This document shows, piece after piece, positions 2,718 through 64,000 of a stretch of DNA of 64,000 nt. The translations under genes and the position numbers were made by a program. This stretch comes from Armatimonadota bacterium (GTDB lineage Bacteria > Armatimonadota > HRBIN16). The stretch spans positions 2,486,264-2,550,263 of the forward strand of contig OW818647.1 in assembly GCA_942492855.1 (NCBI GenBank). The letters are read 5' to 3'. The notes beneath the pieces are model-generated. The model was not told where the DNA came from, ran no database searches, and was given only the letters and a program-made list of their open reading frames with translations. The stretch's first letter is position 1. Every line of letters starts with the position of its first letter.

Positions 2718-4940
2718 ATGAGAGATCATTCGTCAGACAACCTCACATGGAAACATTGGCTGCTTGCGGCATTTTGCTTCAAACTTTTAGGGCTGGTGAT
2801 CCTCTTCAGCTGCCTGTTTCAAGGCAAAATATGGTTACCCACAGGTTTACTTCATCACGTGATGCCAGATGTACCTGGAGCCACACTGCCATGGAACGTG
2901 CTTGCATGGGATGGCCTAGCGCAGTTCGGCACTTGGCGGCTCTGGGCTGGCCAGTGGATGTCACATGGAGTAGTGCCGCTGTGGAACCCACACCAATTCG
3001 GCGGCTATCCCCTTTACGCTAACTCCCAGGCTGCACTTTTCTACCCCTTCAACCTGGCTTTTCCTATCATGGGTGCTGGCGCCTTCGCGGTCACCTCTTT
3101 GATGCATATGGTTATCGCCGGGTTAGGTGTGTGGGCATTGGTCTGTTCTGCTGCCAGGTGCCGATGGAGTGCCGGCATTGTGGCGGGATCGGTGTTTATC
3201 CTCTCACAGTGGTACATATCCTGGCAGTTTCTGCCTACACTACCGCAAAGCGCTAGTTGGCTACCCTGGATGCTGTATGCCGTGTGGAAGCTCTGTGATA
3301 AACCTACCCCGGGTGCAGTCGCACTGCTTGGCGTCTCGGGAGCGATGTGCATACTGGCCGGTCACCTTCAGATCGTGTTCTACGGGCTAGTGGGCTGCGT
3401 GTTGATGGCGTTATGGCACCTCGACTGGAGTGACCTGCGACGAGTCGGAGCGTCTATAGCCGCCCTGATTGGCGCTGGTTTACTGGCATTCAGTCTGGCC
3501 TCCCCGCAATTGATACCGGCGTTGAGGCTTGGCAGTCAGTCTAGCCGGAACAGCGTCGCAACTGAACAGGGCTACCAGGCCTATGTTCGGGGCGGTGTCC
3601 CAAGTGATATGTGGGGTATGCTCGCCTCGCCCATGCTTTACGGCGACCCCAACACGAACTCGTCTACCCAGCCTCGTACCAGCAGCTATGTGGGTGCCCT
3701 TCCGTCACCCGAGGTCGCTAGCTTCGTGGGTGTCTGCGCGTTATTTTTGGGGTTTGTCAGCCTGATACTCAGGAAGCAGCCCGGGCGCGGAGCCATGTTT
3801 AGCATCATCGCACTGGCGTTGTTACTGGCCAGCGGTTCCATCGTAAACAAGCTGTTTTACTTCGGTATACCGGGGTTCGCCAGCAGTGGTTCGCCTGGTA
3901 GGGCACTGGTTTTGTGGGCGCTTGGGCTGGCAGTTCTGGCAGGTTACGGCTTTGATGAGTTGTGGCGCACCGAGCGTAAGAGCACCTGGCTGACCATCGG
4001 ATTGGCACTGTTTACCACAGCAGGTGCAGTGCTATGCGGAGGGTCGAGTATTCTATCAATCACAACGCTTAGTGTCGCCCAAATGTGGCCATATATGATG
4101 AGTATGATGAGCACCAGCATTCTACTGGTGCTGCTGCTTGCCCTCTGCAGCTCACTACCTGTCATCAGCCGGTCACTGGCTATCCCCCTCTGCTGCCTTA
4201 TTGTGATCGGCGAGTTACTATACTCCAGCGCTACGATAAACCAATCTGGCAGCCGAGAGCAGCTATTCCCTGTCAATTCGGTGGTGAAGCAGCTTCGGCA
4301 GATCACTAATAAGGGCGAACGCATCTATGTGGAACAAGGCAGTTGGAGTTTGTCGACATCGCCCAGGGCGATCCTTCCCCCCAACCTGGCCACTATATAT
4401 GGCCTGTATGACCTGCAAGGGTATGACAGCCTCACCCCCGCCACCGCGAAACGTGTGCTTGACCGGATCAATCGTCGTGACAGTGCTCCGCCACAGAACG
4501 GCAACATGCAGCTTGGATGGCCGGGTGCCGATAAAGAACGTCTGCGCCAGATGGGTGTTGGCGCCATCTTGCGGTGGACATCCAGCGGGTCAGTGGTCGA
4601 ACGGCTGGCACGCCCGCGCTCCATCATACAGCAGGGCAATATAGATATGCCGGTGAAGTGGCAGAACCCTAACCAGCTTGATCTTCTAAAACCAGCCGAT
4701 AAAGGGCCTCTGCTGTTTGCCGCCCCCTACTATCCTGGCTGGCGCGCTCAGTTGGCGTCCGGTGAACTGGTGGCGCTCAAGCCGTTGTCAAACGACCTGA
4801 TGGGGTTACCCGATGGTCAAGGTGTGGTCCGGCTGCTCTTCCGCCCTGCAGACCTGCAGATAGGCTATGTGTTGGCCGGTCTGGGGATGGTTGTTTTAGT
4901 CGCGCTACTGGTTCTGCAGCGCGTGAAGCTGCGCGCGTAG
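2718..4940 (+). CDS. Large polytopic membrane protein, YfhO-like / GT-C-type
   Basis: 740 aa with many hydrophobic segments through the N-terminal ~480 aa and a soluble C-terminal domain. The architecture resembles YfhO-family membrane glycosyltransferase-like proteins. Confidence 0.4.
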   Translation: MRDHSSDNLTWKHWLLAAFCFKLLGLVILFSCLFQGKIWLPTGLLHHVMPDVPGATLPWNVLAWDGLAQFGTWRLWAGQWMSHGVVPLWNPHQFGGYPLYANSQAALFYPFNLAFPIMGAGAFAVTSLMHMVIAGLGVWALVCSAARCRWSAGIVAGSVFILSQWYISWQFLPTLPQSASWLPWMLYAVWKLCDKPTPGAVALLGVSGAMCILAGHLQIVFYGLVGCVLMALWHLDWSDLRRVGASIAALIGAGLLAFSLASPQLIPALRLGSQSSRNSVATEQGYQAYVRGGVPSDMWGMLASPMLYGDPNTNSSTQPRTSSYVGALPSPEVASFVGVCALFLGFVSLILRKQPGRGAMFSIIALALLLASGSIVNKLFYFGIPGFASSGSPGRALVLWALGLAVLAGYGFDELWRTERKSTWLTIGLALFTTAGAVLCGGSSILSITTLSVAQMWPYMMSMMSTSILLVLLLALCSSLPVISRSLAIPLCCLIVIGELLYSSATINQSGSREQLFPVNSVVKQLRQITNKGERIYVEQGSWSLSTSPRAILPPNLATIYGLYDLQGYDSLTPATAKRVLDRINRRDSAPPQNGNMQLGWPGADKERLRQMGVGAILRWTSSGSVVERLARPRSIIQQGNIDMPVKWQNPNQLDLLKPADKGPLLFAAPYYPGWRAQLASGELVALKPLSNDLMGLPDGQGVVRLLFRPADLQIGYVLAGLGMVVLVALLVLQRVKLRA

Positions 4941-5179
4941 TTTTCTGAACCGCAGACCCGCACGGATGGGCTCGGATTGGGAGGGAAATGCCAATCGGGA
5001 GATTGGCGTTCCCAGGGGGCGTTCGTGGTCGTCCACCATAGTGATCGGTCGTATCCGTCCAATCCGTCGGATTCCGCCCCGTAAAACCCGAAGAGACCGG
5101 ACCGGTCATGGTCCCCCACACATCAAGGTCTGGTATAGTATTACCAATATACCCTTCATCGAGGAGATCGAGAGCAATC

Positions 5180-8100
5180 ATGGCTACTAAAGACACCAAG
5201 CTCATCAAACCGCAGAATATCGCGGTAAACGCAAGTAACCAGAAGACCACGGCCATCGTGTGGGACTTCGAGGACGGCACGATGCAGGGATGGCAGGTCG
5301 TGGTGGGCAAGCTGGCGCACCCGGTTTCGTGCTGCCCCAATGCGCGCAACACACCAAACGCCCCCTTCCCCAGGCAAGGAAAGTATCACCTCACCTCGCT
5401 GGATATCGATGATGTGGGCGGCTACAATGACGACCAAACCGCTATTGTGATATCACCTGTTTTCGATGCTCACACCGACATAATAAAGCTGCTGGTGGGC
5501 GGTGGAGTAAGCAAACCGACCTACGTCGCACTGTGTGACTTGAAGGGAAATGAGCTCTATGTGGCCAGGGGCCGCAACGAAGAGAAGCTGTATGAAGTCA
5601 TCTGGGATGTGAAGAAGCACAAGAACACCCCACTGTTCATCAAGATGGTGGATTTGGGTAAGGGCTCCTGGTCGCATATCCATGTAGACGACGTGCATAT
5701 TAACGGCGTGCTTCGGCCTGAGTTGAATGCCAAAGCTGCCAAGCTGGTGCAGGATCATTGGCAGGACGCCAATGTCGAAGCGAAAAAGGAGATGGTCAAT
5801 CGAAACGCGCTGCGCAAAGAGAACGCAGACCCCAAAAAGCTGCTGGTAACCGGCACTCAACGAGTCTACACGGGCAAGTATCTTAAGGCGATCAGTGTTC
5901 CGTTGGGAGGGATCGGCTCAGGCTGTATCCAGATCACGGGCCACGGCGAGCGGGTATACCAGACCTTCAATAACTTCAGCTACAACAAATTGCCGAACAG
6001 CTTCTTCGGTCTGGCGATGAGTGTGGGCGGCAAAACCCAGCTCCGCGCCTTGAAAGCGAAAGATGAGGGCGCGTTCAAGGGTTGGACTCCGGAGAGCTTC
6101 CGCGGGGAGTATCCCTGGTGCGAGTGGGATTTCCGCGAGAAGGGCCTGCCGGTTGAGGTCACCATGAACGCGTTCAGTCCGTTCATCCCGATGAACTTGA
6201 AGGACTCCAGCAACCCTGTGGTGATCTTCCGGTTCACGCTGCGAAACACCACCGACAAGGCCGTGAGCCTGCGGCTGCTGGGAGTGCATCGCAACGCAGT
6301 GGGTCAGCGTGACAGCGTCGCACCTGAGGGCAAGGAGCACCCCACTTACGGCCAGAACAGCAATGAAATCCGGCACCAGAACGCACTGACCACCCTGTAT
6401 ATGAGCGGGCCCGATGGCAACATGAGCCTGGCCGTGAACGGCAACGTGAAGGGCTGCGCCTCTTTACGCGACAACGCCGAGTTGGCCAAGCCGATGTCCG
6501 CTCAGAACCAGGCTGGCCCCACACCGAACGGCTCCACGATAGACGGTGCGCTGGAGGTCCCAATCAGCCTGCAGCCGGGTGAAGCGAAGACCGTCAGCTT
6601 TGCGCTGTCCTGGTTCTTCCCTGGTGCTGTGAATGGCAACTCTGTGCGCGCCAGCCGATGGACATTCGATGGCAACTTTTACGAGACCAAATGGCAAAAC
6701 AGCCAGCAGGTGACCAACTGGGCTTTGGGCAACATCGAACGACTGGTGAAAGAGACGAAACTCTTCCACGACACTCTCTACAGCAGCAATCTGCCGCGAT
6801 ACATTCTGGACCGCGCCAGTTCGCAGTTGGCCATTCTGGTCAGCAAGACCTGTTTCTGGAGCCGCAGCGGTTTCTTCGGCATGTGGGAAGGCTGCTGCGA
6901 GGCTGGCTCCGGCTGCTGCGAGGGCAACTGCCTGCATGTGTGGCATTATGCTCAAGGCCACGCTTGGCTCTTCCCCGAACTCGGCCGTATGATGCGCGTT
7001 CAGGAGATGGGTAACATCAAGCCCGATGGCATGCTGCCGCACCGCATCGCCGAGGGCCATGCCCCTGCCGCCGACGGTCTGTATGGCTGCATTTTGGGCA
7101 CCTACCGCGAACATCTGCTGACCCCCAACGAGAACTGGCTGAAGAAGAACTGGGCCAAGCTGAAACCCGCCATGGACTGGTCCATCAAGACCTGGGATCC
7201 CGATGAGGACGGCTTCATGAGCGGCCCGCAGTGGAACACCCTCGACAGTGCTCTCGACGGCTGCAGCAGTTGGCTGGGCTCGATGTATCTGGCGGCTCTG
7301 AAGGCGTGTGTGCAGATGGCCACCATCTGTGGCGACCACGGCGCCGCATCACGGTATGAGGCGATCTTCCGCAAGGGATACGTCAACCAGGGCGACAAGC
7401 TGTTCAACGGCGAATACTACCTCCAGATTCCTGGCCCTACCCCTCGCAACGACTACAATGACGGCAGCATCATCGACCAGGTTCTGGGCCAGTGGTGGGC
7501 CGACCTGCTGCATCTGGGCGATGTCTACCCGCGGGCGAGGGTCAAGAAGGCCGTGCGTGCCATCTACAAGTACAACTTCCATCCACTGATGGGCAACCGC
7601 CCGCAGGTTCCTCGCAAGTTCGTGGCAGACTTTGACGGCGGTACCCAGATGGTGGTCTGGCCGAAGAACAACCCGCCGGCAGTGACCATCCCCTACGCCA
7701 GCGAATGCATGTCGGGCTTTGAGTACAGCGCCGCATCTGCCATGGTGCAGAACGGCGATGTGGAGCAGGGCTATCGTGTGGTCAAGGCAATTGCCGACCG
7801 CTATGACGGCTATCTGCGTGACGACCTGACGGGCGGGAATACCGCCAGTTGGGGGTATAGTGGCAACCCATTCGGAGACGACGAGTGCGGTAAGTTCTAT
7901 GGCCGTGCGTTGAGCAGTTGGTCGATGGTCCCCGCCAGCCAGGGTCTGATCCTGGATGGGCCCAAAGGGATACTCGGCTTCAACCCTCAGTGGCAGCCAC
8001 AGGATCACCGCAGTTTCTTCCCTGTGCCGCAGGGATACGGCCTGTTCACTCAGACGGTTCGGGATGGTCAGCAAACCGACACTATCCGCATGATGGCGGG

Positions 8101-8293
8101 TGGTATCGAGTTGAAGCAGATCGTGCTTCAGTCTTATGCTGGCCGCGCAGTGAGGTCGGTCAAGCTCATCATCAACGGCGTGATGCTGAAGAGCAGCTAC
8201 CGGGTGCAGAACGGTCAGATTACCATCAAACTGGCCGAACCACTGAAGATCAGTGCCGGTCACGTTCTGACCGCGAACATCGCGCTGCGATAG
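5180..8293 (+). CDS. Glycoside hydrolase family 116 (GBA2-type beta-glucosidase/glucosylceramidase-like) with extra N-terminal ~230-aa domain, paralog A
   Basis: The PLGGIGSGCI motif marks the GH116 N-terminal domain. GCCEGNCLHVWHYAQG and the surrounding region match the GH116 catalytic (alpha/alpha)6 domain. The ATG at 5180 is preferred over the ORF-track start at 5108 by alignment with paralog B (MATKDTKLIKPQNI vs MNDNAQIISTQNI). Confidence 0.7.
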   Translation: MATKDTKLIKPQNIAVNASNQKTTAIVWDFEDGTMQGWQVVVGKLAHPVSCCPNARNTPNAPFPRQGKYHLTSLDIDDVGGYNDDQTAIVISPVFDAHTDIIKLLVGGGVSKPTYVALCDLKGNELYVARGRNEEKLYEVIWDVKKHKNTPLFIKMVDLGKGSWSHIHVDDVHINGVLRPELNAKAAKLVQDHWQDANVEAKKEMVNRNALRKENADPKKLLVTGTQRVYTGKYLKAISVPLGGIGSGCIQITGHGERVYQTFNNFSYNKLPNSFFGLAMSVGGKTQLRALKAKDEGAFKGWTPESFRGEYPWCEWDFREKGLPVEVTMNAFSPFIPMNLKDSSNPVVIFRFTLRNTTDKAVSLRLLGVHRNAVGQRDSVAPEGKEHPTYGQNSNEIRHQNALTTLYMSGPDGNMSLAVNGNVKGCASLRDNAELAKPMSAQNQAGPTPNGSTIDGALEVPISLQPGEAKTVSFALSWFFPGAVNGNSVRASRWTFDGNFYETKWQNSQQVTNWALGNIERLVKETKLFHDTLYSSNLPRYILDRASSQLAILVSKTCFWSRSGFFGMWEGCCEAGSGCCEGNCLHVWHYAQGHAWLFPELGRMMRVQEMGNIKPDGMLPHRIAEGHAPAADGLYGCILGTYREHLLTPNENWLKKNWAKLKPAMDWSIKTWDPDEDGFMSGPQWNTLDSALDGCSSWLGSMYLAALKACVQMATICGDHGAASRYEAIFRKGYVNQGDKLFNGEYYLQIPGPTPRNDYNDGSIIDQVLGQWWADLLHLGDVYPRARVKKAVRAIYKYNFHPLMGNRPQVPRKFVADFDGGTQMVVWPKNNPPAVTIPYASECMSGFEYSAASAMVQNGDVEQGYRVVKAIADRYDGYLRDDLTGGNTASWGYSGNPFGDDECGKFYGRALSSWSMVPASQGLILDGPKGILGFNPQWQPQDHRSFFPVPQGYGLFTQTVRDGQQTDTIRMMAGGIELKQIVLQSYAGRAVRSVKLIINGVMLKSSYRVQNGQITIKLAEPLKISAGHVLTANIALR

Positions 8294-8310
8294 AGACTCC
8301 GCAAGCCAAA

Positions 8311-8344
8311 GCTCCCCATCGGCTGTCATCAGCCGGTGGGGAGC
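8311..8344 (+). terminator. 15-bp stem hairpin immediately downstream of GH116 paralog A stop (terminator-like, no U tract)
   Basis: GCTCCCCATCGGCTG-tcat-CAGCCGGTGGGGAGC, with one mismatch in the stem. Confidence 0.4.
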
Positions 8345-8367
8345 ATCAACTTGTAAGTAACTTAGTT

Positions 8368-8436
8368 GCCTATGTCCGGGGCGGTTTGGCGGTACGCTGA
8401 TAATCGCCACAGTATAAAGACAGCCCCGGACATAGC
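8368..8436. promoter_or_regulatory. 14-15 bp inverted repeat (GCCTATGTCCGGGGC ... GCCCCGGACATAGC) flanking a ~40-nt spacer with TATAAAG, upstream of GH116 paralog B
   Basis: The inverted repeat is seen directly in the sequence, and the spacer contains a -10-like TATAAAG. It may be an operator or regulatory stem-loop. Confidence 0.3.
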
Positions 8437-8534
8437 CGATTTATGGGGACCCGTCTGTTACAGCCTGGGCTGCCGTACAAGCACGGGCGGATGCTTGTTA
8501 CTAACTTCACCTTCGTAAGGAGACCCAACCACAC

Positions 8535-11500
8535 ATGAATGACAACGCCCAGATCATATCAACGCAAAACATCACCGTAAGCAGCTCGAACCCTGAGACC
8601 ACGGCCATCGTGTGGGATTTCGAGGCCGGCACCATGCAGGGATGGCGCATTGCCGTCGGGAAGCAGGCTTACCCGGTCTCGTGCAACCCCAACGCGCGGA
8701 ATGTGCTCAACACCCCGTTCCCCAGACAAGGCAAATACCACCTCTCGACACTCGACACCGATGCGCTGGGCAACTGCGATGATAATCAGACCGCGATTGT
8801 GGTGTCTCCGGTGTTTGAGTCACATGGCGGGATCATCAAGCTGATGGTGGGCGGTGGAATGAACGGCGCGGTCTATCTGGCGCTTTGTGACATGCAGGGC
8901 CATGAGCTGATGGTGGTCAGGGGGCGCAACGAAGAGCGGCTGTATGATACCGAGTGGGACGTGAGTGCCCTTAAGAACCAGCCGTTATTCCTCAAAATGG
9001 TGGATATGGCGAAAGGCTCTTGGGCCCATATCCATGTGGACAATGTGCGCATCAATGGCCTTCTCAGACCAGAACTGGATGCCAAGGTAGCCAAGCTGGT
9101 GCGCCTGCAGTGGCAGGATGCCGAAACCAAACTCGCTGCCGAGTTAGCTTACCGCGACAAGCTCCGTCTAGAGAACGCTGACCCAAAGAAGCTGCTGGTG
9201 ACTGGCCATCAGCGCGTCTACACCGGGCGATACCTGGACGCCATCAGCGTGCCTCTTGGCGGGATCGGCTCAGGATGTATCCAGATCACGGGGCACGGCG
9301 AGCGGATCTACCAGACCTTCAACAACTTCAGCCAAAACAAAGTGCCGAACAGCTTTTTCGGCCTCGCCGTCAAGGTGGGCAGCCGGACCCAGCTCCGTGC
9401 TCTGCAAGGCAAGGATGTGGGTCCCTTCAAGGGCTGGTCACCGGAGAGCTTCAGAGGCGAATACCCCTGGTGCGAGTGGGGGTTCCGCGAGAAGGGCCTG
9501 CCTGTCGAAGTCACCATGAACGCCTTCAGCCCGTTCATCCCTGGCAACCTAAAGGACTCCAGCAACCCTGTGGTGATCTTCCGCTTCACACTGCGCAATA
9601 CCACCACCAAGCCGGTCAGCCTGCGCTTGCTGGGGTTGCACCGTAATCCGGTGGGTCAGCGCGAGGGGGTGTCACCGACAACCCTGCAGCACCCGGCATA
9701 TGGTCAGAATACCAATGAGATCACACATCAGAACGGCATCACCACACTGGTGATGAGCGGTCCCGATGGTAATATGAGCCTGGCGGTGAACGGCAACGCC
9801 ACGGGACGCGCCTCGGTGAAAGACCACACCGAGTTGGCCAAACCGATGTCTGCCCTCAACCATGCCGGGCCGACGCCCAACGGCTCCACGCTGGACGGTG
9901 CTCTCGAAGTGCCCATCAGCTTGCAGCCAGGCGAGGCGAAGACGATCAGCTTTACGCTGGGTTGGTATTTCCCGGGTGCCGTGAACGGCAGCCCCAACCG
10001 CGCCAGCAAGTGGACGTTTGATGGCAACTACTACGAGACGAAGTGGCGGAACAGCCAGCAGGTGGCCCACTGGGCGCTATCCAATCTGGAGAGGTTGACG
10101 CACGAGACCAAGCTATACCACGACACGCTCTACAGCAGTAACCTGCCACGCTACATCCTGGACCGAGCCAGTTCGCAGTTGGCGGTGCTGGTCAGCAAGA
10201 CTTGCTTCTGGAGCCGCAGCGGCTTCTTCGGTATGTGGGAGGGATGTCTGGAATCGGGCACAGGGTGCTGCGAAGGCAACTGCCTGCATGTGTGGCACTA
10301 CGCGCAGGGGCAGGCCTGGCTTTTTCCCGAACTCGGTCGCATGATGCGCGAGCAGGAGATCCACAACATCAAGCGCGACGGCAGTCTGCCCCACCGCATC
10401 GCCGAGGGGCATGTCCCCGCCGCCGATGGCCTGTTCGGCTGCGTGCTGGGAACCTACCGTGAGCACCTGTTGAGCCCCAACGCGACCTGGCTGAAGAAGA
10501 ACTGGCGCATATTGAAGCCCACCATGGAATGGGCCATCAAGACCTGGGACGCCGATGAAGATGGATACATGAGCGGTCCACAGTGGGACACGCTGGACAG
10601 CTCTCTGGGTGGCTGCAGCAGTTGGATAGGCTCATTGTATCTGGCGGCTCTGAAAGCTTGTGCTCAGATGGCGGACAAATGCGGCGATCCTGCGTCCACC
10701 CGGTATGACGCCATCGCGCGCAGGGGGTATACCAACCAGGGCGAGAGGCTGTTCAACGGCGAATACTACCAGCAGATTCCCGGCTCTGAGCCGCTGTATG
10801 ACTACAAAGACGGCTGCAGCATCGACCAGGTGCTGGGCCAGTGGTGGGCTGATCTGCTGCATCTGGGAGATGTCTACCCGCGTGCGCATGTCAAGAAAGC
10901 TGTGAAAGCGCTCTTTAAGCACAACTTCCAGCCTCACATGGGCGACCGTGAACAGGGTCGCGGCTATGTGGCCAGCTACGACGGTGGCTTGCAGATGATC
11001 ATCTGGCCGAAGAATAACCGGCCAACCCTGTCGACCCCAGGATCGCCCGAGGTGATGAGCGGCTTTGAATACAGTGCCGCCGCAGCGATGGTTCAGAATG
11101 GTGACCTGGAGCAAGGCTACCGTGTGGTGAAGACCGCCGCTGACCGGTATGACGGTATGCTGCGCACGGGCATGAACGCCAGCTCAAGTGTGTGTTGGGG
11201 ATACAGCGGCAACCCGTTTGGTGACGATGAGTGCGGCAAGTTTTACGGTCGTGCGTTGAGCAGTTGGTCGATGATCCCTGCCAGCCAGGGCCTGATCCTG
11301 GACGGCCCCAAGGGGATACTCGGCTTCAAGCCACAGTGGCAGCCGCAGGATCACCGCAGCTTCTTCCCTGTGCCTCAGGGCTACGGGTTGTTCTCACAGA
11401 CAGTTCGCGATGGCCAGCAGAATGACACCATCCGCATGACGACGGGTGGCATCGAGCTGAAGCAGATCATGCTTCAGGCATACGGTGGTCGCGGGGTGAA

Positions 11501-11639
11501 GACCGTGAAGCTCAGCCTCAACGGGGTGGTGCTCAAGAGCAGCTACCGCGTGCAGGATGGTTTGGTGAACATCACTCTGGCGGCGCCTCTGACGCTGCTT
11601 GCCGGCCAAGTGCTGACGGTGGCTGTCGCGCTGCGGTAG
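8535..11639 (+). CDS. Glycoside hydrolase family 116 with extra N-terminal domain, paralog B (tandem duplicate of 5180..8293)
   Basis: Collinear with the upstream gene at roughly 70-75% aa identity. Same PLGGIGSGCI and GCCEGNCLHVWHYAQG motifs. Confidence 0.7.
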   Translation: MNDNAQIISTQNITVSSSNPETTAIVWDFEAGTMQGWRIAVGKQAYPVSCNPNARNVLNTPFPRQGKYHLSTLDTDALGNCDDNQTAIVVSPVFESHGGIIKLMVGGGMNGAVYLALCDMQGHELMVVRGRNEERLYDTEWDVSALKNQPLFLKMVDMAKGSWAHIHVDNVRINGLLRPELDAKVAKLVRLQWQDAETKLAAELAYRDKLRLENADPKKLLVTGHQRVYTGRYLDAISVPLGGIGSGCIQITGHGERIYQTFNNFSQNKVPNSFFGLAVKVGSRTQLRALQGKDVGPFKGWSPESFRGEYPWCEWGFREKGLPVEVTMNAFSPFIPGNLKDSSNPVVIFRFTLRNTTTKPVSLRLLGLHRNPVGQREGVSPTTLQHPAYGQNTNEITHQNGITTLVMSGPDGNMSLAVNGNATGRASVKDHTELAKPMSALNHAGPTPNGSTLDGALEVPISLQPGEAKTISFTLGWYFPGAVNGSPNRASKWTFDGNYYETKWRNSQQVAHWALSNLERLTHETKLYHDTLYSSNLPRYILDRASSQLAVLVSKTCFWSRSGFFGMWEGCLESGTGCCEGNCLHVWHYAQGQAWLFPELGRMMREQEIHNIKRDGSLPHRIAEGHVPAADGLFGCVLGTYREHLLSPNATWLKKNWRILKPTMEWAIKTWDADEDGYMSGPQWDTLDSSLGGCSSWIGSLYLAALKACAQMADKCGDPASTRYDAIARRGYTNQGERLFNGEYYQQIPGSEPLYDYKDGCSIDQVLGQWWADLLHLGDVYPRAHVKKAVKALFKHNFQPHMGDREQGRGYVASYDGGLQMIIWPKNNRPTLSTPGSPEVMSGFEYSAAAAMVQNGDLEQGYRVVKTAADRYDGMLRTGMNASSSVCWGYSGNPFGDDECGKFYGRALSSWSMIPASQGLILDGPKGILGFKPQWQPQDHRSFFPVPQGYGLFSQTVRDGQQNDTIRMTTGGIELKQIMLQAYGGRGVKTVKLSLNGVVLKSSYRVQDGLVNITLAAPLTLLAGQVLTVAVALR

Positions 11640-26981: not shown

Positions 26982-27208
26982 GGCACCCACGAAGTGGGTA
27001 TGATTCTTATAGCCAGGGGTGAGCGAAGCGATACCCCTGGAACGCGGCACATCTATCCTACCCCGAAGTGGGTCGCGCCTATTCGTAGCAGCCGCTATAT
27101 CAGTCACCAAATCCGACCCCCTTCGGGGGTAAATGCTTTTTGTCGCCTGCCACGGGTTGCGCTGGCGCTTACCCGTGGCTATAAGAATCTTACCCCATTC
27201 GGGGTGCC
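26982..27208. mobile_element. MITE family 2 copy (~227 bp), TIRs GGCACCCACGAAGTGGGTA / TACCCCATTCGGGGTGCC
   Basis: The terminal inverted repeats are seen directly. Subterminal TTCTTATAGCCAGGGGTGAGCG and its inverse CGCTTACCCGTGGCTATAAGAA are also present. A second full copy lies at 40766..40992 and a partial copy at 53891..53984. Confidence 0.55.
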
Positions 27209-37965: not shown

Positions 37966-37988
37966 AGGGCGAACGGCCGTTCGCCCCT
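37966..37988 (+). terminator. GC-rich palindromic hairpin AGGGCGAACGGCCGTTCGCCCCT immediately after a + strand stop (terminator/REP-like); second copy at 43361..43384
   Basis: The same ~28-nt sequence (GGGCGAACGGCCGTTCGCCCCTACGTG) occurs 20-30 nt downstream of the stop codons at 37940 and 43341. Confidence 0.4.
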
Positions 37989-38341
37989 ACGTGCTTCGAC
38001 ATGCTCGATTAGCCCCGCTACGACGGGTTCCATCGCCCCAGGGGGCTCCATCACCCGTCGCTGATCAGATGGCTGCCCGCGTCGCTTTGCTCCAGCGGGC
38101 GCATGCGGAAGGGACGCTGCGCCCGCTTGCGGGCTGCAAATGCCTAGACGCGCGGTGAGGGAACCCCGGCAAGGGACGCCAGTCCCTTGGGGTGACTAAA
38201 CCCGCGGCAGGTCAAAGGGCGATTCCCGAATCGCCCCTACGCGGCCCGCGTTCCTGCGGGCAACTTGGGCTGATCAAATCACCCCCAGGAATCAAAAAAG
38301 GGGCGGGCAAATGCCCGCCCTTTGGATTCGGATACCGGAGG

Positions 38342-40165
38342 CTAATGCAGGCTCTCGTGCGTGCGCACCAGAACCTCAAACCGTAGGTCGGTACCGAGCA
38401 CGCCCACGATGTTCTCGTCATCATCCACTATCGTGCACGACAGCGTGACACAGAGCACACCGGTGATGCGGGATTTGTAGAACTCGGTGATATACACCTG
38501 CCCAGGGCCTGCTTCGATGGCTCCGATGAACCAGTCTCGGTCGGCGAAGTCGTGATCAAGACCGTAGGTGCCGAAGCTTTCGCGGTACTGCGGTTGGGTG
38601 ATGTTGCTGGTGATCTTCTTGCCAGTTTGGTCAACCACGTAGGCGAACTGGATGAAGGAGTGCTTATGCACCGCATCCTCTAGAACCGGCTCAATCCTTG
38701 TGTGGTCCATGCTCATGATCTCACGGTTTTGAACCAGATCGACCACAATCTTCTCCACCAGGTTGAGCGCATGGTCACGCAGCTTGTCGTAATCGCTCTT
38801 GAAGTATTCGGGCAGATGCATCCGCGCCTGCATCAGCATCTCATTATCCGAGATGGAGGTGACGCGGCCTTCGGCATACTGTTGCTTGATCCACTCCATC
38901 ATACCTGCTAAACCCGGATGCCGCTTGTCTATGGCTACTTCCTGACGAAGACCGAGGTAGTTGTTGACCCAATGAGCTACTCCGGCCACACCCGATTTGT
39001 CGGTGATGTTCACTCGGGCCGGACGGTCCAGAATCTTGTCGGTATCGAAGATGTTATATATCTCCGCGTCCTTCAACATGCCGTCGGCATGGATCCCGGC
39101 GCTGGTGGCATTGAAGTGCGAGCCCACGAAGGGATAGGAGGGTGATATCTCCACGCCCATCTCCTTCTGGAAGTAGTCTGCTATCTCGGTAATAATGCGC
39201 GTGTCCACACCGTTGGTTTCGCCTTTCAGGGAGATGTAGTCCATGATGGCTCCCTCAAGCGGTGGATTACCCGTGCGTTCACCAAAACCCAGAAGCGAGC
39301 AGTTGGCGTTGGAGCACCCATATAGCCAGGCGGTGGTGGAGTTGACCATCACTTTATGGAAGTCGTTATGACCGTGCCACTCTAACCACTCACTGGGCAC
39401 TCCGCATTCATGAATCATCGAGTGGATCATCTTGGGTATGCTTCGCGGCAGAGTGGCCTCCGCATACGGCACACCAAACCCCATGGTGTCACACAGCCTG
39501 ATCTTGACCGCCTTCTTACTTTCGCGGGCGACTTCCATCAACCGTTGCACGAAGGGGATGATGAACCCGTCGAAATCGGCGCGGGTGACATCCTCAAGAT
39601 GGCATCGCACTGCGTCCAGCCCGGATTCGAGCGCCGTCGTGACCAGGTCCACATACATCTCAAGGGCCTGAGAGCGCGATTTGTTCATCTTGCGGAAGAT
39701 GTGGTAGTCCGATGCGGAGGTCAGAATGCCGGTTTCGCGCAGGCCCATATCCTTCACCAGCTTGAAGTCCGCTTTAGTGGCTCGGATCCATCCTGTGACC
39801 TCAGGGAACTGGTGGCCCAGCTCCAGGCATTTGTATACGGCCTCTTTATCTTTATCACTATATAGGAAAAACTCCGTGGCGCGGATGACGCCGTTGGGCC
39901 CGCCCAACTGGTTCAGCAGATCATACAGCCGCACGATGTGCTCTACCTTATATGGGGGCCTTGACTGTTGCCCGTCACGGAACGTCGTGTCCGTAATATA
40001 CATCTCATGTGCGGGTTCCATAGGCACGGAGTGACCGTCGAAGACAAGACGCGGCACCTCAGTGTATGGGAACTGCTCGCGCAGCATGTTTGGTTCCGGT
40101 ACATCAACGACTTCTCGTTTGGAGGTGGTGTGCAGTAAACCCCATCGCGGGTTTTTTGATATCAT
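38342..40165 (-). CDS. HMGL-like pyruvate-carboxyltransferase domain protein (LeuA/CimA/NifV family) fused to a C-terminal Cache-like sensor domain
   Basis: The N-terminal half has DTTFRDGQQS and HGHNDFHKVMVNSTTAWLYGCSNANCSLLGFGERTGNPPLE, which align with the LeuA HxH...GERxGN motifs. The C-terminal ~200 aa (YKSRITGVLCVTLSCTIVDDDENIVGVLGTDLRF) matches the Cache domain core (Y.s...g..vit.s.pv.d..g...GVlg.Di). Confidence 0.6.
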   Translation of the reverse strand: MISKNPRWGLLHTTSKREVVDVPEPNMLREQFPYTEVPRLVFDGHSVPMEPAHEMYITDTTFRDGQQSRPPYKVEHIVRLYDLLNQLGGPNGVIRATEFFLYSDKDKEAVYKCLELGHQFPEVTGWIRATKADFKLVKDMGLRETGILTSASDYHIFRKMNKSRSQALEMYVDLVTTALESGLDAVRCHLEDVTRADFDGFIIPFVQRLMEVARESKKAVKIRLCDTMGFGVPYAEATLPRSIPKMIHSMIHECGVPSEWLEWHGHNDFHKVMVNSTTAWLYGCSNANCSLLGFGERTGNPPLEGAIMDYISLKGETNGVDTRIITEIADYFQKEMGVEISPSYPFVGSHFNATSAGIHADGMLKDAEIYNIFDTDKILDRPARVNITDKSGVAGVAHWVNNYLGLRQEVAIDKRHPGLAGMMEWIKQQYAEGRVTSISDNEMLMQARMHLPEYFKSDYDKLRDHALNLVEKIVVDLVQNREIMSMDHTRIEPVLEDAVHKHSFIQFAYVVDQTGKKITSNITQPQYRESFGTYGLDHDFADRDWFIGAIEAGPGQVYITEFYKSRITGVLCVTLSCTIVDDDENIVGVLGTDLRFEVLVRTHESLH

Positions 40166-40420
40166 AGTCTATATCTCCTGTCGCTCACGTATTTTTCTAT
40201 ACCAAATATAGTGTACCCTCCGGTGAAACATTGTGCCAAATTTCACAATGTATTGGTAGTGGGCGCATATGTTTCGGATGTCGGAGTGATTGAGAGAGTG
40301 GTTCTGCACCTATTCATCAGTCCAGTTCGATATAATACAATCACATATCATCCAGATATCGGTATCTATAAATGCATAGACATTCTAGTTTTTAAGATAC
40401 CATAGACTGATGTTTGAGAT

Positions 40421-40660
40421 CAGTCTACTACCCACAAATACCTAAGGAGCCAGCAGTCGCCGATTCCGCGACATAAATGTCTCGGCTATTGACCGGCCAA
40501 GCCTGCTGAAGCAGTCTGGGTGCCGCATCCAGCCACAAGGCGAAGTGGTGCTTCAACAGGCTTGGCCGGTCAATAGCCATGTGCTTTAGCGCGTGTTAGG
40601 GCAGGCATACATCGTTATATAACGATAAACCCCCGCTCGGACTTGTGGGAAATAGACTGG
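40421..40660. mobile_element. MITE family 1 copy (~240 bp)
   Basis: Outer TIRs CAGTCTACTACCCACAAAT / CTTGTGGGAAATAGACTG. Internal CCGCGACATAAATGTCTCGGCTATTGACC, central GCCTGCTGAAGCAGTCTG, and GGTCAATAGCCATGTG. Confidence 0.55.
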
Positions 40661-40765
40661 GTTCCTGCACCGCTCTGCTGATCAATAGCGGCCGGTGTCG
40701 CTGCGCTCCAACCGGTGTAGTGGGAGGGGACCACCGCAGCTAGTTTGGCCATGTCCGGGCCTCCG

Positions 40766-40992
40766 GGCACCCACGGAGTGGGTAGCAGTTCTTATAGCCA
40801 GGGGTGAGCGCAGCGATACCCCTGGTAAAGGGCCCCAGTGTTTACCCCCGAATGGGGGTCGAACCGACTGAAGAAGCTCAATATTCCGGTAACCATGCCG
40901 ACCCACGTCGGGGTAGGATGTTAACGGCTGTCATCCACGGGTTACGCTTACGCACCCGTGGCTGTAAGAATCCTACCCACTCCGTGGGTGCC
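40766..40992. mobile_element. MITE family 2 copy (227 bp) with perfect 19-bp TIRs GGCACCCACGGAGTGGGTA / TACCCACTCCGTGGGTGCC
   Basis: Same length and subterminal TTCTTATAGCCAGGGGTGAGCG / CGCACCCGTGGCTGTAAGAA repeats as the copy at 26982..27208. Confidence 0.55.
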
Positions 40993-41149
40993 GGAAACAA
41001 CATCAGCATTACCGATCGTGGACTATCGCACGATCATCGCCTATGTCTGAGTTGTAACTGGCACTGTTGGTTAAATAGGCGCCCGCCCGAAGGGGAACAA
41101 CAAAAAAGCCTGCGTCACGGGCCGGTTGGTGTTTACTATTCCAAGAAAA

Positions 41150-41478
41150 CAAAATTTTAGGCTCTACTAATCATGTGTCAAAATGACATATAATTTATAA
41201 TAAATACGTTATCACATGGATTATTATCAATTTGGATACAAGGTTTTTATGAGATGTTTGCAATCACATTTTTAGTGTATTTCTGAAAAGTGATATGATA
41301 ACGAAATGTATGATGATATATTATAGGTATGAAGTACGTACACTAGACTAAGTACATGTACTTTATGAATCACTAACTAGTTTTATGACTGGGGCTTTAG
41401 ATTAGACAGATAAGCAGGATTAAACGCCCAACCCCTCGAATACTAAACAGACCAAACCCCACCCCAGGAGAAATCAAT
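41150..41478. promoter_or_regulatory. AT-rich (~30% GC) non-coding island upstream of the GH20 gene containing two adjacent palindromic sites (AGTACGTACACT at 41333..41344, AGTACATGTACT at 41351..41362)
   Basis: A sharp compositional drop relative to the ~60% GC flanks, with no ORF of 60 aa or more. The palindromes GTACGTAC and AGTACATGTACT are 6 nt apart, as expected for adjacent transcription-factor sites. A second AT-rich stretch lies at 40200..40420. Confidence 0.3.
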
Positions 41479-53890: not shown

Positions 53891-53984
53891 GACCCACTTC
53901 GGGGTAGGAATGATGCATCGTCAACCACGGGTTGCGCTAACGATTACCCGTGGCTATAAGAATCATACCCACTCCGTGGGTGCC
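53891..53984. mobile_element. Partial MITE family 2 copy (right half only)
   Basis: CACGGGTTGCGCTAACGATTACCCGTGGCTATAAGAATCATACCCACTCCGTGGGTGCC matches the right arm of the 26982 and 40766 copies. Confidence 0.45.
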
Positions 53985-54393: not shown

Positions 54394-55851
54394 CTATTTC
54401 ATCGCATACAGCCACGCAGGATATTGGTGAATTTCGGAGTTTTGACGGCTTCGTGTTTTGGAATTTGACATAGGATGTATCGACGCTTGTAGCCTTGACA
54501 CGACATCCCCATAGTCACGCTCATTCGGCGAGTCAATTACCTCTTGCCTCATAAACATAGCCAATCGATTAGTCGATAACCTGCCATCAATCGTTCGACG
54601 CTGCCACTTAGGCCTGGGCAGCTCCTCATCCTTCACACCAGAAATTATCGCAGCGAGATGCATTAAACTATATACCCATACCAGAAACGGAATGACATTG
54701 CAGACTGAGTTCTCACACCATACCTGCGGATCACCGATACCAAAGTAGCTTTTCTCCTCACGAAACGCCACCTCCTGCTCCCACCTCCAGATATATAACT
54801 GCACAACCTGTTCAATTGGCATATCTGGATCAGAACACAGGACGTAAGCCGGGTTTCGATATAGTATCCTTCCGTGCTTCCAGAGTCTATATGGTGTTGG
54901 TGCAACCACGATCAGTCTGAAATCTTGAGCTCCTACCCCTCTCCATCTCACTCGGTCGACGGTCTTGATCCTCACAACGTGGAATTTGCCAGACGAGTAA
55001 ACGCATATGTGTTCCCATTCATATGAATCGTCCTGTCGTATCAGGTCAGGCTTGGGTACAGGGTCTCCATATACACGTCGCTTTCCAGTTTTTGGCTGCT
55101 TGTCTGGCAGTTTCGTCAACTTGGCATCACGACGTAACCGTCCAATGATCGTGGTGTTCTCCGGGATTTTAGTCAACATGGTCTTGTTCATGTAACCTCC
55201 ATCTACCGTTAACACAAGCCGCCTGTGCCTTGAGTTTGGGTCCTCATCCATTCTTTCGCGTAGCTCCTTCATGGCGTCAGCCCCCACCTTGGTAACCCGG
55301 CAGGCCTTCTGGTCCGTCTTGTATTGGCTGCGCTGCTCGTCAGTCGCTTTCGGACCTGGCTTCTTGGGAGTAGGTGCGTGCAGCATGTTAATAGGGATAG
55401 CAGTGGCCCGGCTATGATATCCGTTGAAGGGGACAAGAGCTGATAACTGAACACAACGCTGACCATGTATGAAGTTCGGGCGGTATTTTGGCCCTTGAGG
55501 GTCTCTACGTAAGGAGACGCCATGCCCCTTTGTCCCTTTGCGCGGGATTATCGTATCATCCATCGCGACAACAAACGGCATGTTCTCTGGAGTGAGGCTG
55601 ATCGCTTGCTGTAAAACGGTGTCCCAGCACTGGGACACCGAGATACGGTTTTGTTCAAAGATGCGGTAATACGCTGACCAGTCTTTGTCAGCCTGACCAG
55701 CTGTCTGGATGATCCCTGTGATTGTGTGTCTTCCGACGGTTGCCGTGGCCGCCAGAGCGATCTGCTGGGACTTTTCATAGGTTCGCTGTTGGTTAAACGC
55801 ATCGCGTGCCAGTTCATAGAGAAGCATAAATGCAGGCAATACTTTGCTCAT
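54394..55851 (-). CDS. IS4-family DDE transposase
   Basis: 485 aa with the C-terminal YREK signature block LYIWRWEQEVAFREEK (Y-x2-R-x3-E-x6-K), typical of IS4/IS701/ISH3-type transposases. Confidence 0.8.
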   Translation of the reverse strand: MSKVLPAFMLLYELARDAFNQQRTYEKSQQIALAATATVGRHTITGIIQTAGQADKDWSAYYRIFEQNRISVSQCWDTVLQQAISLTPENMPFVVAMDDTIIPRKGTKGHGVSLRRDPQGPKYRPNFIHGQRCVQLSALVPFNGYHSRATAIPINMLHAPTPKKPGPKATDEQRSQYKTDQKACRVTKVGADAMKELRERMDEDPNSRHRRLVLTVDGGYMNKTMLTKIPENTTIIGRLRRDAKLTKLPDKQPKTGKRRVYGDPVPKPDLIRQDDSYEWEHICVYSSGKFHVVRIKTVDRVRWRGVGAQDFRLIVVAPTPYRLWKHGRILYRNPAYVLCSDPDMPIEQVVQLYIWRWEQEVAFREEKSYFGIGDPQVWCENSVCNVIPFLVWVYSLMHLAAIISGVKDEELPRPKWQRRTIDGRLSTNRLAMFMRQEVIDSPNERDYGDVVSRLQASIHPMSNSKTRSRQNSEIHQYPAWLYAMK

Positions 55852-61956: not shown

Positions 61957-62268
61957 TCAAGACTCCAATGTTTCATCAGCCGAAGTATACGCTTGATCTG
62001 GACGAGTCAGTCGGTCAGGATACTTCAAACGCAAACGGCCGCTGTTCACCATACTTGACAGGTATTTTTGGCGTATATAGTGACTATCTCTGTCCACGAA
62101 CGAAGCAATCTGGTCGGCTCTCAGGAACCTGCCGCGACACAAACGCACTATTACCTCTTCCATATCTTTGGAGTTGATCTTTCCTGGCATTTTGACCTGG
62201 GGTATCAGTTCACCTGCATCACCATTGTGGAGTGTGACTTCATCATGATGAGTTGAACTGCCGTCCAA
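61957..62268 (-). pseudogene. Possible gene remnant encoding a C-terminal winged-helix-like segment in an AT-rich region
   Basis: A 103-aa ORF in low-GC DNA. EEVIVRLCRGRFLRADQIASFVDRDSHYIRQKYLSSMVNSGRLRLKYPD resembles the C-terminal wHTH of larger Fic/AlbA_2-type proteins, but no N-terminal portion is present. Confidence 0.2.
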
Positions 62269-62581
62269 ATGTGAGGATCCTTGCCCAAGAGTGAGGAGTA
62301 GGTGTTCATGGGTAATTCAATAACCTGACATGGCCGTTCGCGTATCACGTGAAACAAACAGCACCAGTCGGGTGTATGGGGGTCATGTATATATACCTAA
62401 ACTAACATGGGATCATTACTCTAGATCGGTCCGCTTCACACAGACCGTTGATGTTATACCGTGCTGACGGTTGAACAGCCAATGATGTCATCGGTTGTGT
62501 TGTGAAAAATGCTGTTGATCACATAATATGCATGCAGTTTTATTTGATACAGAAACCAACATGTAAAATCACACCACAAAC

Positions 62582-63991
62582 CTATGATTTGTTTTTGGGG
62601 ATATCACCAGTATCAGCTTCCATATCGGTTAATCCACGCATCAGGTAGATCCGTTTCCTTTGATATAGCCAGAGCCTAAAATCTCTACTAGAGGTCCTAA
62701 CCGAAAAACCATAAATCAAGCTAACAATAGATATCGAACAAAAAATCCACGCAAAGGATTTGAGCACAGTGTTAATCATGCCATTCGGCACTGTCAGAAA
62801 AAAGCCACTATATGCAGATAATACAATTATTACACGTAAAATCCATGCAACTATCTTTGACCATTTATCTGCGTATCGATTACTGGTATCGTTTATATTT
62901 CGTATCATCAAGGAATTCGCATAACGAGCCTTTTCTAGTGCACGTTGAGTATCGTTTAATTGGTCTTCAGTGACTTGCTGTTTATGGTCACGCTCTTGAA
63001 TTATCTCATCATATTGAACCTTTTGCTCTTCTTTGATTTCATCTGTAACCCTTTGTAAAATTTCTATTGCGGTTGCTTCACTAAGTGCTTTATCATCACC
63101 TAAAGTGAGATGCACAAGTTCCTGCCTTACATTTAGGTTGCATCTTAGGAGCTGATGGTCTTTGGCTGTGATCGTAGCTTTATCTTCTAGTTTTCCGATT
63201 TCTACGATAAATTTGTTAAGTAATTTCTCAGAAGGGCCCAATGCTGCATACGAAAAAGCTATCACTTCTTTTTTTGGTAGATCAGGGAATTTCATTGGAG
63301 CTTTCAGCCAGGCCATATTTGCTAGGCTGTATTCTGATATCACACTCGATACAGCACGAGATGACTCAAACTTCTTTCCATATTCATATGCCACTTGGGC
63401 AAAGCGAGAGTTGCATGTTACAAGGACTGCTTTTGACCGTTCAAGAGTACTCGGCGACGTATAACCTCTTAATACATAAATGCTACGGACAGAGTTGACA
63501 TCGCAATCCTTAGCACATTCATTGTTATACATGAGTTCGTCTCCGAGTGACCTGGAAAACACTGCCTCATCTATCTGGAAATTCATATCATACGGTGGTG
63601 TTGACCGAATATGTATCCCCATCTCTGCAAGCGAATCATCTATACGACCAGCGATCATAAGTAAATCGGATCTTGATGTACCTCTTAAACGCGCTTCTTG
63701 TATGATGCTACCCCTTCCATCATCACGATCTAGGTACGTCGCTGAACTTGAGATAACATTTTCTAACTCGTCTCGAGTATGGCTAAATACCGCCAGATTG
63801 CCTCCAAGTTGAACTAGCAATTCCATTAAGTCGTGTGTGACTTCTTGTTTCTCCTCACCTTCGAGCCCAAGCCTTCGAATCAGCAAGGGTGTATCAAAGT
63901 AAAATGTTACGTTCCTGAATGTCGATGACACATCCTTTAGGTCTTGACACAGAAGAGAGTTCGCTAGCATGTGCCCTTGGACAAGGATCAT
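62582..63991 (-). CDS. Large hypothetical protein in AT-rich island, C-terminal coiled-coil plus two TM helices; N-terminus may extend beyond window end
   Basis: At least 469 aa, GC ~40% against ~60% elsewhere. The frame stays open past 63991 to the window edge. C-terminal KIVAWILRVIIVLSAYSGFFLTV ... FAWIFCSISIVSLIYGF form two hydrophobic helices, preceded by a charged coiled-coil-like segment. Confidence 0.4.
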   Translation of the reverse strand: MILVQGHMLANSLLCQDLKDVSSTFRNVTFYFDTPLLIRRLGLEGEEKQEVTHDLMELLVQLGGNLAVFSHTRDELENVISSSATYLDRDDGRGSIIQEARLRGTSRSDLLMIAGRIDDSLAEMGIHIRSTPPYDMNFQIDEAVFSRSLGDELMYNNECAKDCDVNSVRSIYVLRGYTSPSTLERSKAVLVTCNSRFAQVAYEYGKKFESSRAVSSVISEYSLANMAWLKAPMKFPDLPKKEVIAFSYAALGPSEKLLNKFIVEIGKLEDKATITAKDHQLLRCNLNVRQELVHLTLGDDKALSEATAIEILQRVTDEIKEEQKVQYDEIIQERDHKQQVTEDQLNDTQRALEKARYANSLMIRNINDTSNRYADKWSKIVAWILRVIIVLSAYSGFFLTVPNGMINTVLKSFAWIFCSISIVSLIYGFSVRTSSRDFRLWLYQRKRIYLMRGLTDMEADTGDIPKNKS

Positions 63992-64000
63992 GAAGTAGCC

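Follow-up and report, generated by a model that had tools for sequence, protein, structure and literature searches.

A probable Re-citrate synthase carrying a C-terminal PDC/Cache-like module in an Armatimonadota genome

Re-citrate synthase (Re-CS) starts the oxidative branch of the tricarboxylic acid (TCA) cycle in many anaerobes and uncultured lineages, and the enzymes of Syntrophus aciditrophicus and Clostridium kluyveri are termed known, isolated Re-CS (PMC12016533). The former, SYN_02536 (Kim et al. 2013, J Bacteriol 195:1689), is biochemically characterized, and this one purified long-form enzyme already carries a C-terminal PDC module behind its N-terminal signature, barrel and helical subdomains. 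The clostridial enzymes CKL_0973 (Li et al. 2007), CAC0970 and that of C. thermocellum are short forms (~440-455 residues in Table S1 of Layton et al., PMC12016533, as text from optical character recognition) that end where the first helix of such a module would start and have no sensor domain. Here we describe a gene in a 64,000-nucleotide stretch of an Armatimonadota bacterium genome (assembly GCA_942492855.1, contig OW818647.1; hereafter, the window) that very probably encodes a long-form Re-CS, with a PDC/Cache-like module for which we propose a regulatory role.

Add-on domains are familiar from related enzymes of the DRE-TIM fold. In LeuA and CimA, which carry LeuA_dimer, and in the homocitrate synthase (HCS) of Sulfolobus, which carries a C-terminal RAM domain, the add-on follows the helical subdomains, as it does in the window protein, and it binds the amino acid that is the pathway's end product. 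These enzymes differ from the window protein in their keto-acid substrate and in the fold of the regulatory domain, and share only ~17-27% identity with it; the catalytic domain of the Sulfolobus enzyme is present in the PDB as 6ktq, named 'dRAM'. Cache families, for their part, are described as 'principally extracellular' and joined to signal-transduction outputs, the only intracellular families of the clan being the small YkuI_C and Diacid_rec (PMC4822843), so that it is atypical to find a Cache-like module on an enzyme of central metabolism. YkuI_C and Diacid_rec resemble the module described here in being cytoplasmic and placed at the termini of soluble proteins, but their partners are signaling or transcription domains (EAL, CdaR-type regulators) rather than an enzyme of central metabolism, and in Pfam the window module falls to MCP-like_PDC_1/dCache_1 instead.

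Identity of the enzyme

We compared the window protein by BLASTP with the reference enzymes of Table S1, whose recognized text has lost a few residues, so that the identities given here are slight underestimates. SYN_02536 matched at 50% identity over essentially the whole length (query residues 1-606, target residues 1-601), PDC included. The short clostridial enzymes matched over the catalytic unit, to about query residue 455, at 55% (C. thermocellum), 50% (CAC0970) and 49% (CKL_0973), whereas HM1_2993, the Dehalococcoides mccartyi Re-CS, NifV and LeuA reached only 27-30%, over the barrel and post-barrel region to about residues 373-402. In a rough, quick neighbor-joining tree of the core, a tight clade holds both characterized enzymes, with long and short forms interleaved, and the window protein falls into its Armatimonadota branch. 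Within this clade, 52 positions show at least 90% conservation and differ from LeuA, NifV and D. mccartyi-type Re-CS, and the window protein has all of them. They include the N-terminal extension, Q66 (DTTFRDGQQ, where outgroups show DTTLRDGEQ), EFFLY, SDYHIF, W263-H-G-H, T354 and FN.T.AGIHADG. The signature of the extension, EPN..R..FPY.EVPR..FD, is present in SYN_02536, CKL_0973, the C. thermocellum enzyme and a Desulfovibrionales short form, and is absent from LeuA, NifV and D. mccartyi-type enzymes in our alignment. The clostridial enzymes further share DTTFRDGQQ, EFFLY, SDYHIF, RCH.ED.TRAD, WHGHND and FN.T.AGIHADG with the window protein, and one homologue of the fusion (P0117) is already labeled citrate (Re)-synthase by JGI.

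The metal-binding and catalytic residues are intact. The Claisen-condensing motifs named by an earlier reading of the DNA (hereafter, the sequence-only reading), namely DTTFRDGQQ, HxH and GERxGN, are all in place within a Pfam HMGL-like match at residues 55-330 (E 2e-28), and strands and helices alternate across residues 56-335 of the AlphaFold2 model. The DRE-TIM metal and catalytic residues D59, R63, H264, H266, E296, N300 and H359 are all present and, like the barrel motif residues and T354, A356, G357, H359, D361 and G362 of the post-barrel region, invariant among 70 homologues. Foldseek searches with the full-length model returned MAM synthase, HCS, isopropylmalate synthase and citramalate synthase (E 1e-20 to 1e-13). 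The PDB matches, among them HMG-CoA lyase and 4-hydroxy-2-oxovalerate aldolase, were exclusively other DRE-TIM enzymes at 14-26% identity, and no Re-CS structure turned up in the PDB sequence and fold searches.

Gene neighbors in relatives bear on the assignment as well. We scanned species-representative genomes with the C-terminal alignment, which gave 118 relatives, and kept the best 80 loci. NADP-isocitrate dehydrogenase (IDH) was found at 26 of these 80, nearly always directly downstream and on the same strand, and three such neighbors scored 653-667 bits with the NADP-IDH model TIGR00183 (cut-off 567). A large subunit of the HacA/aconitase family lay downstream at 14 of the 80, and the full order of Re-CS, aconitase large and small subunits and IDH was seen at 6. 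As this set of neighbors makes up the route from citrate to 2-oxoglutarate, it independently supports the assignment of the long-form enzyme.

The sequence-only reading had taken the enzyme to be of LeuA/CimA/NifV type, and we considered whether it might be an isopropylmalate, citramalate or homocitrate synthase whose leucine-, isoleucine- or lysine-sensing domain has been exchanged for an amino acid-sensing Cache domain. Membership in the same superfamily and the shared catalytic motifs fit this idea, but the protein is only ~27% identical to LeuA and NifV, compared with 50% for characterized Re-CS, and the clade signature is that of Re-CS. All NCBIfam equivalog models for these enzymes scored 3-10 times below their cut-offs: nifV, the best, 143.5 bits (cut-off 462.9), leuA_bact 110 (599) and citramal_synth 60 (450). 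Some homologue operons do contain a two-subunit dehydratase resembling LeuC/LeuD; it matches HacA/aconitase subfamily models, however, and remains under the LeuC equivalog cut-off, and the neighboring dehydrogenase is an NADP-IDH equivalog and not LeuB, whose model gave only 108-123 bits (cut-off 353). A point in favor of the idea is that, among PDB sequences, the PDC profile described below matches Tlp3 best, a sensor of isoleucine, leucine and valine. On balance we rejected the LeuA/CimA/NifV assignment, which we regard as very improbable, and we conclude that the gene very probably encodes an Re-CS (EC 2.3.3.3) of the C. kluyveri/S. aciditrophicus type. No gltA-like open reading frame (ORF), as would encode an Si-citrate synthase, was found within the window.

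Database names for this family conceal its function. Members are called 'histone-lysine N-methyltransferase' (the NCBI name of many, long and short forms alike), 'cache domain-containing protein', 'isopropylmalate/homocitrate/citramalate synthase' and, in one case, 'triose-phosphate isomerase'. Re-citrate synthase is thus routinely and systematically misannotated.

The C-terminal PDC module and its putative pocket

A single module lies behind the catalytic unit: a long helix leads into a PAS-like alpha/beta core, and another helix closes it at the C terminus. Pfam assigned residues 492-599 to MCP-like_PDC_1 (PF22673; 40.1 bits, cut-off 27), with dCache_1 at residues 485-599 short of acceptance (38.4 bits, cut-off 45), and homologues carry precomputed matches to both PF02743 and PF22673. 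LeuA_dimer found no match in the window protein even at E <= 1, and neither did RAM. A PDC profile that we built from 31 C-terminal regions matched the distal modules of solved dCache sensors (Tlp3, E 1e-9; KinD, 1e-7; PctA, 1e-6; also Mlp24/37) and, weakly, YkuI (2bas; E 0.011), which is a structural match too. The AlphaFold2 model of residues 436-607 (mean predicted local distance difference test [pLDDT] 86, predicted template modeling score [pTM] 0.81) shows a helix at residues 456-477, a five-stranded sheet flanked by helices, and a last helix at the C terminus. All of the top 50 PDB matches of this model in Foldseek were sensor domains of PDC/Cache type or close relatives, with probability 1.00 and E as low as 6e-9 (KinD, Tlp3, DctB and PctA among them); the others named were PctC, CtaA, Mlp24, CitA, WalK and the cytoplasmic YkuI.

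Hydropathy peaked at only 1.22 (19-residue Kyte-Doolittle window), and an N-terminal signal-like segment is absent. Since no hydrophobic segment is fit to serve as a transmembrane helix or signal peptide, the module is cytoplasmic, and we rejected a membrane-anchored or secreted protein. Its sole partner domain is the metabolic enzyme; Pfam found no signaling output domain.

These results bear on what the sequence-only reading had said of the C terminus. Its Cache/PAS-like fold is borne out, with Pfam, profile, model and Foldseek all pointing to PDC/Cache and none to the standard LeuA_dimer or R-region domain that it had set against this, and we rejected LeuA_dimer as the C-terminal domain. 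Its remark that a Cache domain on a cytoplasmic enzyme is unusual agrees with the lack of membrane or signal segments and with the principally extracellular character of these families (PMC4822843). The two-domain layout holds too, although its C-terminal part of ~220 residues does not: a single PDC of ~150 residues (458-607) follows a catalytic unit that extends to about residue 455, residues 336-457 being helical subdomains common to the short forms. Nor does the module replace a LeuA regulatory domain, as had been suggested. The closest relatives that lack it just terminate at about residue 455, their representative matches (444-476 residues) stopping at about residue 456 of the window protein.

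We then compared the module with PctA (5ltx) in a HMMER alignment and counted conservation over 84 distinct PDC sequences, which are 35-45% identical between phyla. R543 aligns with PctA R126, W545 with W128 and F546 with Y129 (for the other pocket positions, see Table 1). W545, D593, S565, T568 and T574 are present in all 84 sequences, R543 and Y509 in 83, F546 in 82 and Y563 in 65 (77%), the mark of a domain under constraint. In PctA, Y121, R126 and W128 touch the carboxylate of the ligand and Y144 and D173 its amino group, D173A and D173N abolish binding, and the two halves of the dCache_1AA amino acid motif stand 13-17 residues apart (Gumerov et al. 2022, PMC8915833); Y129 is an aromatic residue with a structural part to play (PMC10589655). 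Four of the five motif contact positions are kept in the window module (R543, W545, Y563 and D593), with a gap of 17 residues, inside the published range. SYN_02536 likewise has R, W, F, Y, S and D at all of these pocket positions, though it comes from Syntrophia rather than Armatimonadota and is ~20 residues longer at its C terminus.

The dCache_1AA sensors PctA, Tlp3, Mlp24/37 and CtaA thus have the PDC fold in common with the window module, which has equivalents of R126, W128, Y144, D173 and Y129. It differs from them in being single, cytoplasmic, free of transmembrane helices and joined to a metabolic enzyme, and in its ~20% identity. Because the Y121 position is lost and only 77% of sequences have Y563, we did not file the module under dCache_1AA, and bona fide membership was rejected; a binding mode like that of dCache_1AA is possible. 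In the same alignment, alanine stands at the position of D593 in the pyruvate-binding KinD, which fits the idea that an aspartate of the D593 type may mark a ligand that bears an amino group. On the strength of pocket conservation and the match to the PctA motif we propose, tentatively, that the ligand may be an amino acid; ligand binding, ligand identity and allosteric coupling are all inferred.

A regulatory PDC could instead sense carbon status through a ligand lacking an amino group, for instance pyruvate, 2-oxoglutarate, citrate or a dicarboxylate. Among the best structural matches are KinD, which binds pyruvate, and DctB, which binds succinate; R543 and W545 bind carboxylates, and both the loss of the Y121 position and the variability of Y563 are compatible with such a ligand. 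Against this, D593 is invariant, the acidic residue at the amino-group position is missing from KinD, and D593 would be electrostatically unfavorable for a purely anionic ligand. We consider a non-amino ligand unlikely, and an amino acid somewhat less so.

A proposed regulatory role

Regulatory modules are swapped or added within this enzyme family. One relative (P0122, 57% identity) has an N-terminal response-regulator receiver domain on its Re-CS core, and two (P0150 and P0185) have a C-terminal ACT domain, at a weak ~21 bits in Pfam, under the cut-off of 27. Since alternative receiver and effector modules occur on the same core, the position of the PDC would seem to be a regulatory port. 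A fourth protein (P0145, 833 residues) ends in an ATP-grasp/L-amino-acid-ligase module and may belong to a different pathway. Three homologues at 69-71% identity (P0075, P0077 and P0085), from three independent clusters, carry an XRE helix-turn-helix at the N terminus on top of the PDC. This addition of ~65 residues plus a linker is in frame, is carried by one Armatimonadota subclade and goes with the absence of a methionine at the usual start position; a protein of this subclade, combining DNA binding, enzyme and sensor, might be a one-component 'trigger enzyme' regulator.

The PDC might also be purely structural, an oligomerization or stability module whose sensor pocket is a relic. Short forms are active without it, and PAS/Cache domains are often dimerization modules (PMC8694187). 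SYN_02536 is reportedly a homotetramer. Yet the residues that are invariant across phyla go beyond core hydrophobics to ligand-contact positions (R543, W545, S565 and D593), and relatives bear small-molecule and signal modules (ACT, receiver) on the same core, which speaks against a purely structural part. We judge a structural role improbable and lean, by a modest margin of confidence, toward an effector-binding regulator, given the pattern of pocket conservation. As an explanation of the whole protein, a cytoplasmic long-form Re-CS with an effector-binding PDC regulator is probable.

In the mechanism that we propose, the divalent-metal DRE-TIM barrel would condense acetyl-CoA and oxaloacetate to citrate, and the citrate would enter the oxidative TCA branch, through aconitase and NADP-IDH, to supply 2-oxoglutarate and the glutamate-family amino acids. 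The PDC pocket would bind a small carboxylate-bearing metabolite, likeliest an alpha-amino acid such as glutamate, which as the end product of the pathway is the most logical candidate. The signal might then pass through the long N-terminal helix of the PDC into the adjoining helical subdomain that bears GIHADG; the first PDC helix (residues 458-478) continues straight from this subdomain with its invariant GIHADG loop. Ligand-driven displacement of a helix is the usual output of PDC sensors, and in LeuA (including that of Mycobacterium tuberculosis) and HCS the equivalent subdomain completes the active site and joins it to the regulatory domain. A ligand-induced helix shift could thereby alter catalysis or the quaternary state, and control of this kind would parallel that by the leucine- or isoleucine-binding R domain of LeuA and CimA. 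The full proposal, in which the PDC of the long form is a cytoplasmic sensor of an amino acid (likeliest glutamate or a related signal of nitrogen status) and allosterically gates carbon into the 2-oxoglutarate branch, is put forward as a tentative one.

Several points weigh against this proposal. The equivalent of PctA Y121 is H538 in the window protein and glutamate in 80% of relatives, and Y563 is replaced in 23% of them, mostly by cysteine or phenylalanine and also by asparagine. The amino acid motif was established with double Cache domains, and the window PDC is a single module. The packing of the two domains against each other is not confidently predicted in the full-length AlphaFold2 model (pLDDT 82, pTM 0.64). 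Neither at the window locus nor elsewhere in the Armatimonadota loci is the gene linked to aconitase or IDH. As short-form Re-CS works without a PDC, the module is dispensable for catalysis, and a biochemical test of the PDC of an Re-CS was not found in the searchable literature.

Some neighbors recall nitrogen metabolism. At locus L001 (GCA_942493375.1, an 8.2-Mb genome; positions 3516-9821), the Re-CS gene directly follows amtB, glnB (P-II) and glnD on the same strand, placing a nitrogen-status cluster beside an enzyme that supplies 2-oxoglutarate, and another homologue is divergently placed with respect to an AsnC-type regulator. These two cases are suggestive of a nitrogen or amino acid link, if anecdotal. 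We found no conserved gene neighborhood across the window, Armatimonadota or large-genome homologues, and no functional clue in it apart from these two.

Distribution, genomic setting and significance

The sequence-only reading had called the fusion unusual and perhaps a novel allosteric regulation module, and had proposed surveying homologues for it. The survey shows the fusion to be widely conserved, and given its presence in SYN_02536 as well as in relatives of many phyla it is not new at the level of sequence; the idea of an allosteric module is plausible. In all 80 kept loci a PDC follows the Re-CS core in the same ORF, in a scan biased toward the fusion because one of its two search patterns falls in the linker between core and PDC. 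These loci come from Armatimonadota, Abditibacteriota, Desulfobacterales, Thermodesulfobacteriota, Syntrophobacterales, Nitrospirota, Spirochaetota, Elusimicrobiota, Auribacterota, UBP3 and Methylomirabilis; the PDC is kept in Desulfobacterota and Syntrophia too. At least 120 listed protein clusters, mostly from Armatimonadota, have the same two-domain architecture at 62-93% identity, and the fusion is also found, among protein clusters, in Lentisphaeria and an archaeal metagenome-assembled genome (MAG).

Two MAGs each have two long-form paralogues on separate contigs: L015 and L016 (CAWGNL01), whose cores are 71% and 76% identical to that of the window protein, and L027 and L032 (CAZTAO01), at 67% and 75%. 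Such pairs could be differently regulated isoenzymes or could reflect contamination of the MAGs.

The features of the window gene are collected in Table 1. Its start is well supported, in that M1 is invariant and homologues at 62-93% identity span 99-100% of the query. With its own Shine-Dalgarno sequence, promoter-like pair and terminator, the gene appears to be monocistronic, in contrast to the delta-proteobacterial or Syntrophia-type relatives, in which icd is often next downstream. Sigma-70-like patterns around the promoter candidate are no more numerous than in shuffled sequence.

Table 1. Positions of the gene, its domains, motifs and expression signals in the window
Feature	Positions	Strand	Basis
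Probable long-form Re-citrate synthase, complete ORF, 607 aa + stop	38342..40165	-	ORF list
N-terminal extension, aa 1-54, Re-CS signature EPN..R..FPY.EVPR..FD	40004..40165	-	clade alignment
HMGL-like (DRE-TIM) barrel, aa 55-335	39161..40003	-	Pfam, AlphaFold2, Foldseek
DTTFRDGQQ, aa 59-67	39965-39991	-	motif
Metal ligands H264-G-H266	39368-39376	-	motif
GERTGN, aa 295-300	39266-39283	-	motif
Post-barrel helical subdomains, aa 336-457	38795..39160	-	weak HCS_D2 match, conservation
Catalytic-loop motif GIHADG, aa 357-362	39080-39097	-	within post-barrel subdomains
Single cytoplasmic PDC/Cache-like module, aa 458-607	38345..38794	-	Pfam, profile, AlphaFold2, Foldseek
Putative pocket motif R543-D-W545-F546	38528..38539	-	HMMER alignment to PctA 5ltx
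Y563-K-S565 (Y563 aligned with PctA Y144, S565 with PctA D146)	38471..38479	-	HMMER alignment
D593 (aligned with PctA D173)	38387..38389	-	HMMER alignment
Shine-Dalgarno AGGAG, 9 nt 5' of ATG	40175..40179	-	direct sequence reading
Sigma-70-like promoter candidate TTGGCA-18-TACACT	40210..40239	-	consensus scan, pattern match only
Intrinsic terminator, 8-bp all-G/C stem then T-run, 22 nt past stop codon	38291..38320	-	

The gaps on either side of the gene contain repeats. Upstream, a 1.3-kb gap (40166-41478) holds an imperfect hairpin of ~230 nt (40766-40992) whose 20-nt terminal arms (GGCACCCACGGAGTGGGTAG and its reverse complement) are perfect and whose RNA fold has a dG of -136 kcal/mol (z = -8.0). 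Near-copies of the 20-mer lie in two other intergenic gaps (26982-27001 and 53965-53984), and the hairpin looks like a dispersed element, of the kind of a miniature inverted-repeat transposable element or a repetitive extragenic palindromic (REP) sequence. A second inverted repeat in the same gap (40484-40578) is 30 nt long and 97% complementary, and in the genome of the closest relative (locus L008) no more than ~500 nt separate the Re-CS gene from the end of the ORF called upstream. The downstream gap has two copies, 250 nt apart (37966-37990 and 38216-38240), of a GC-rich, REP-like 25-nt palindrome, AGGGCGA-N11-TCGCCCCTAC, which no shuffled sequence produced by chance. Scanned against Rfam, the gaps flanking the gene gave nothing near any gathering score.

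Near the gene, the window encodes two trypsin-like proteases, a GH20 hexosaminidase and further glycoside hydrolases. Two tandem paralogous genes for GH116-family beta-glucosidase-like proteins of ~1,050 residues each lie at 5108-8293 and 8535-11639 (+), and GH1, GH20 and GH106-like genes elsewhere; this content reflects a carbohydrate-degrading lifestyle, as expected of Armatimonadota. A DDE_5-family transposase ORF at 54394-55851 (-) and the window end at 62001-64000, with 42% GC compared with ~57% elsewhere, may belong to a mobile or foreign segment.

The fusion is old and widespread, and automatic annotation already marks it; the window gene adds one more example. We found no mention, in the searchable literature, of a sensor-type domain on Re-citrate synthase, although the one purified long-form enzyme carries it. 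Recognizing the gene for what it very probably is corrects metabolic reconstructions for Armatimonadota and others. If the proposed role is true, this would be the first demonstrated case of a Cache/PDC domain regulating an enzyme of central metabolism and not a signaling protein. If the pocket is an effector site, the Cache/PDC superfamily would reach from signal transduction to the direct allosteric control of metabolism, and the PDC would be a fourth regulatory fold on DRE-TIM Claisen enzymes, besides LeuA_dimer, RAM and ACT.

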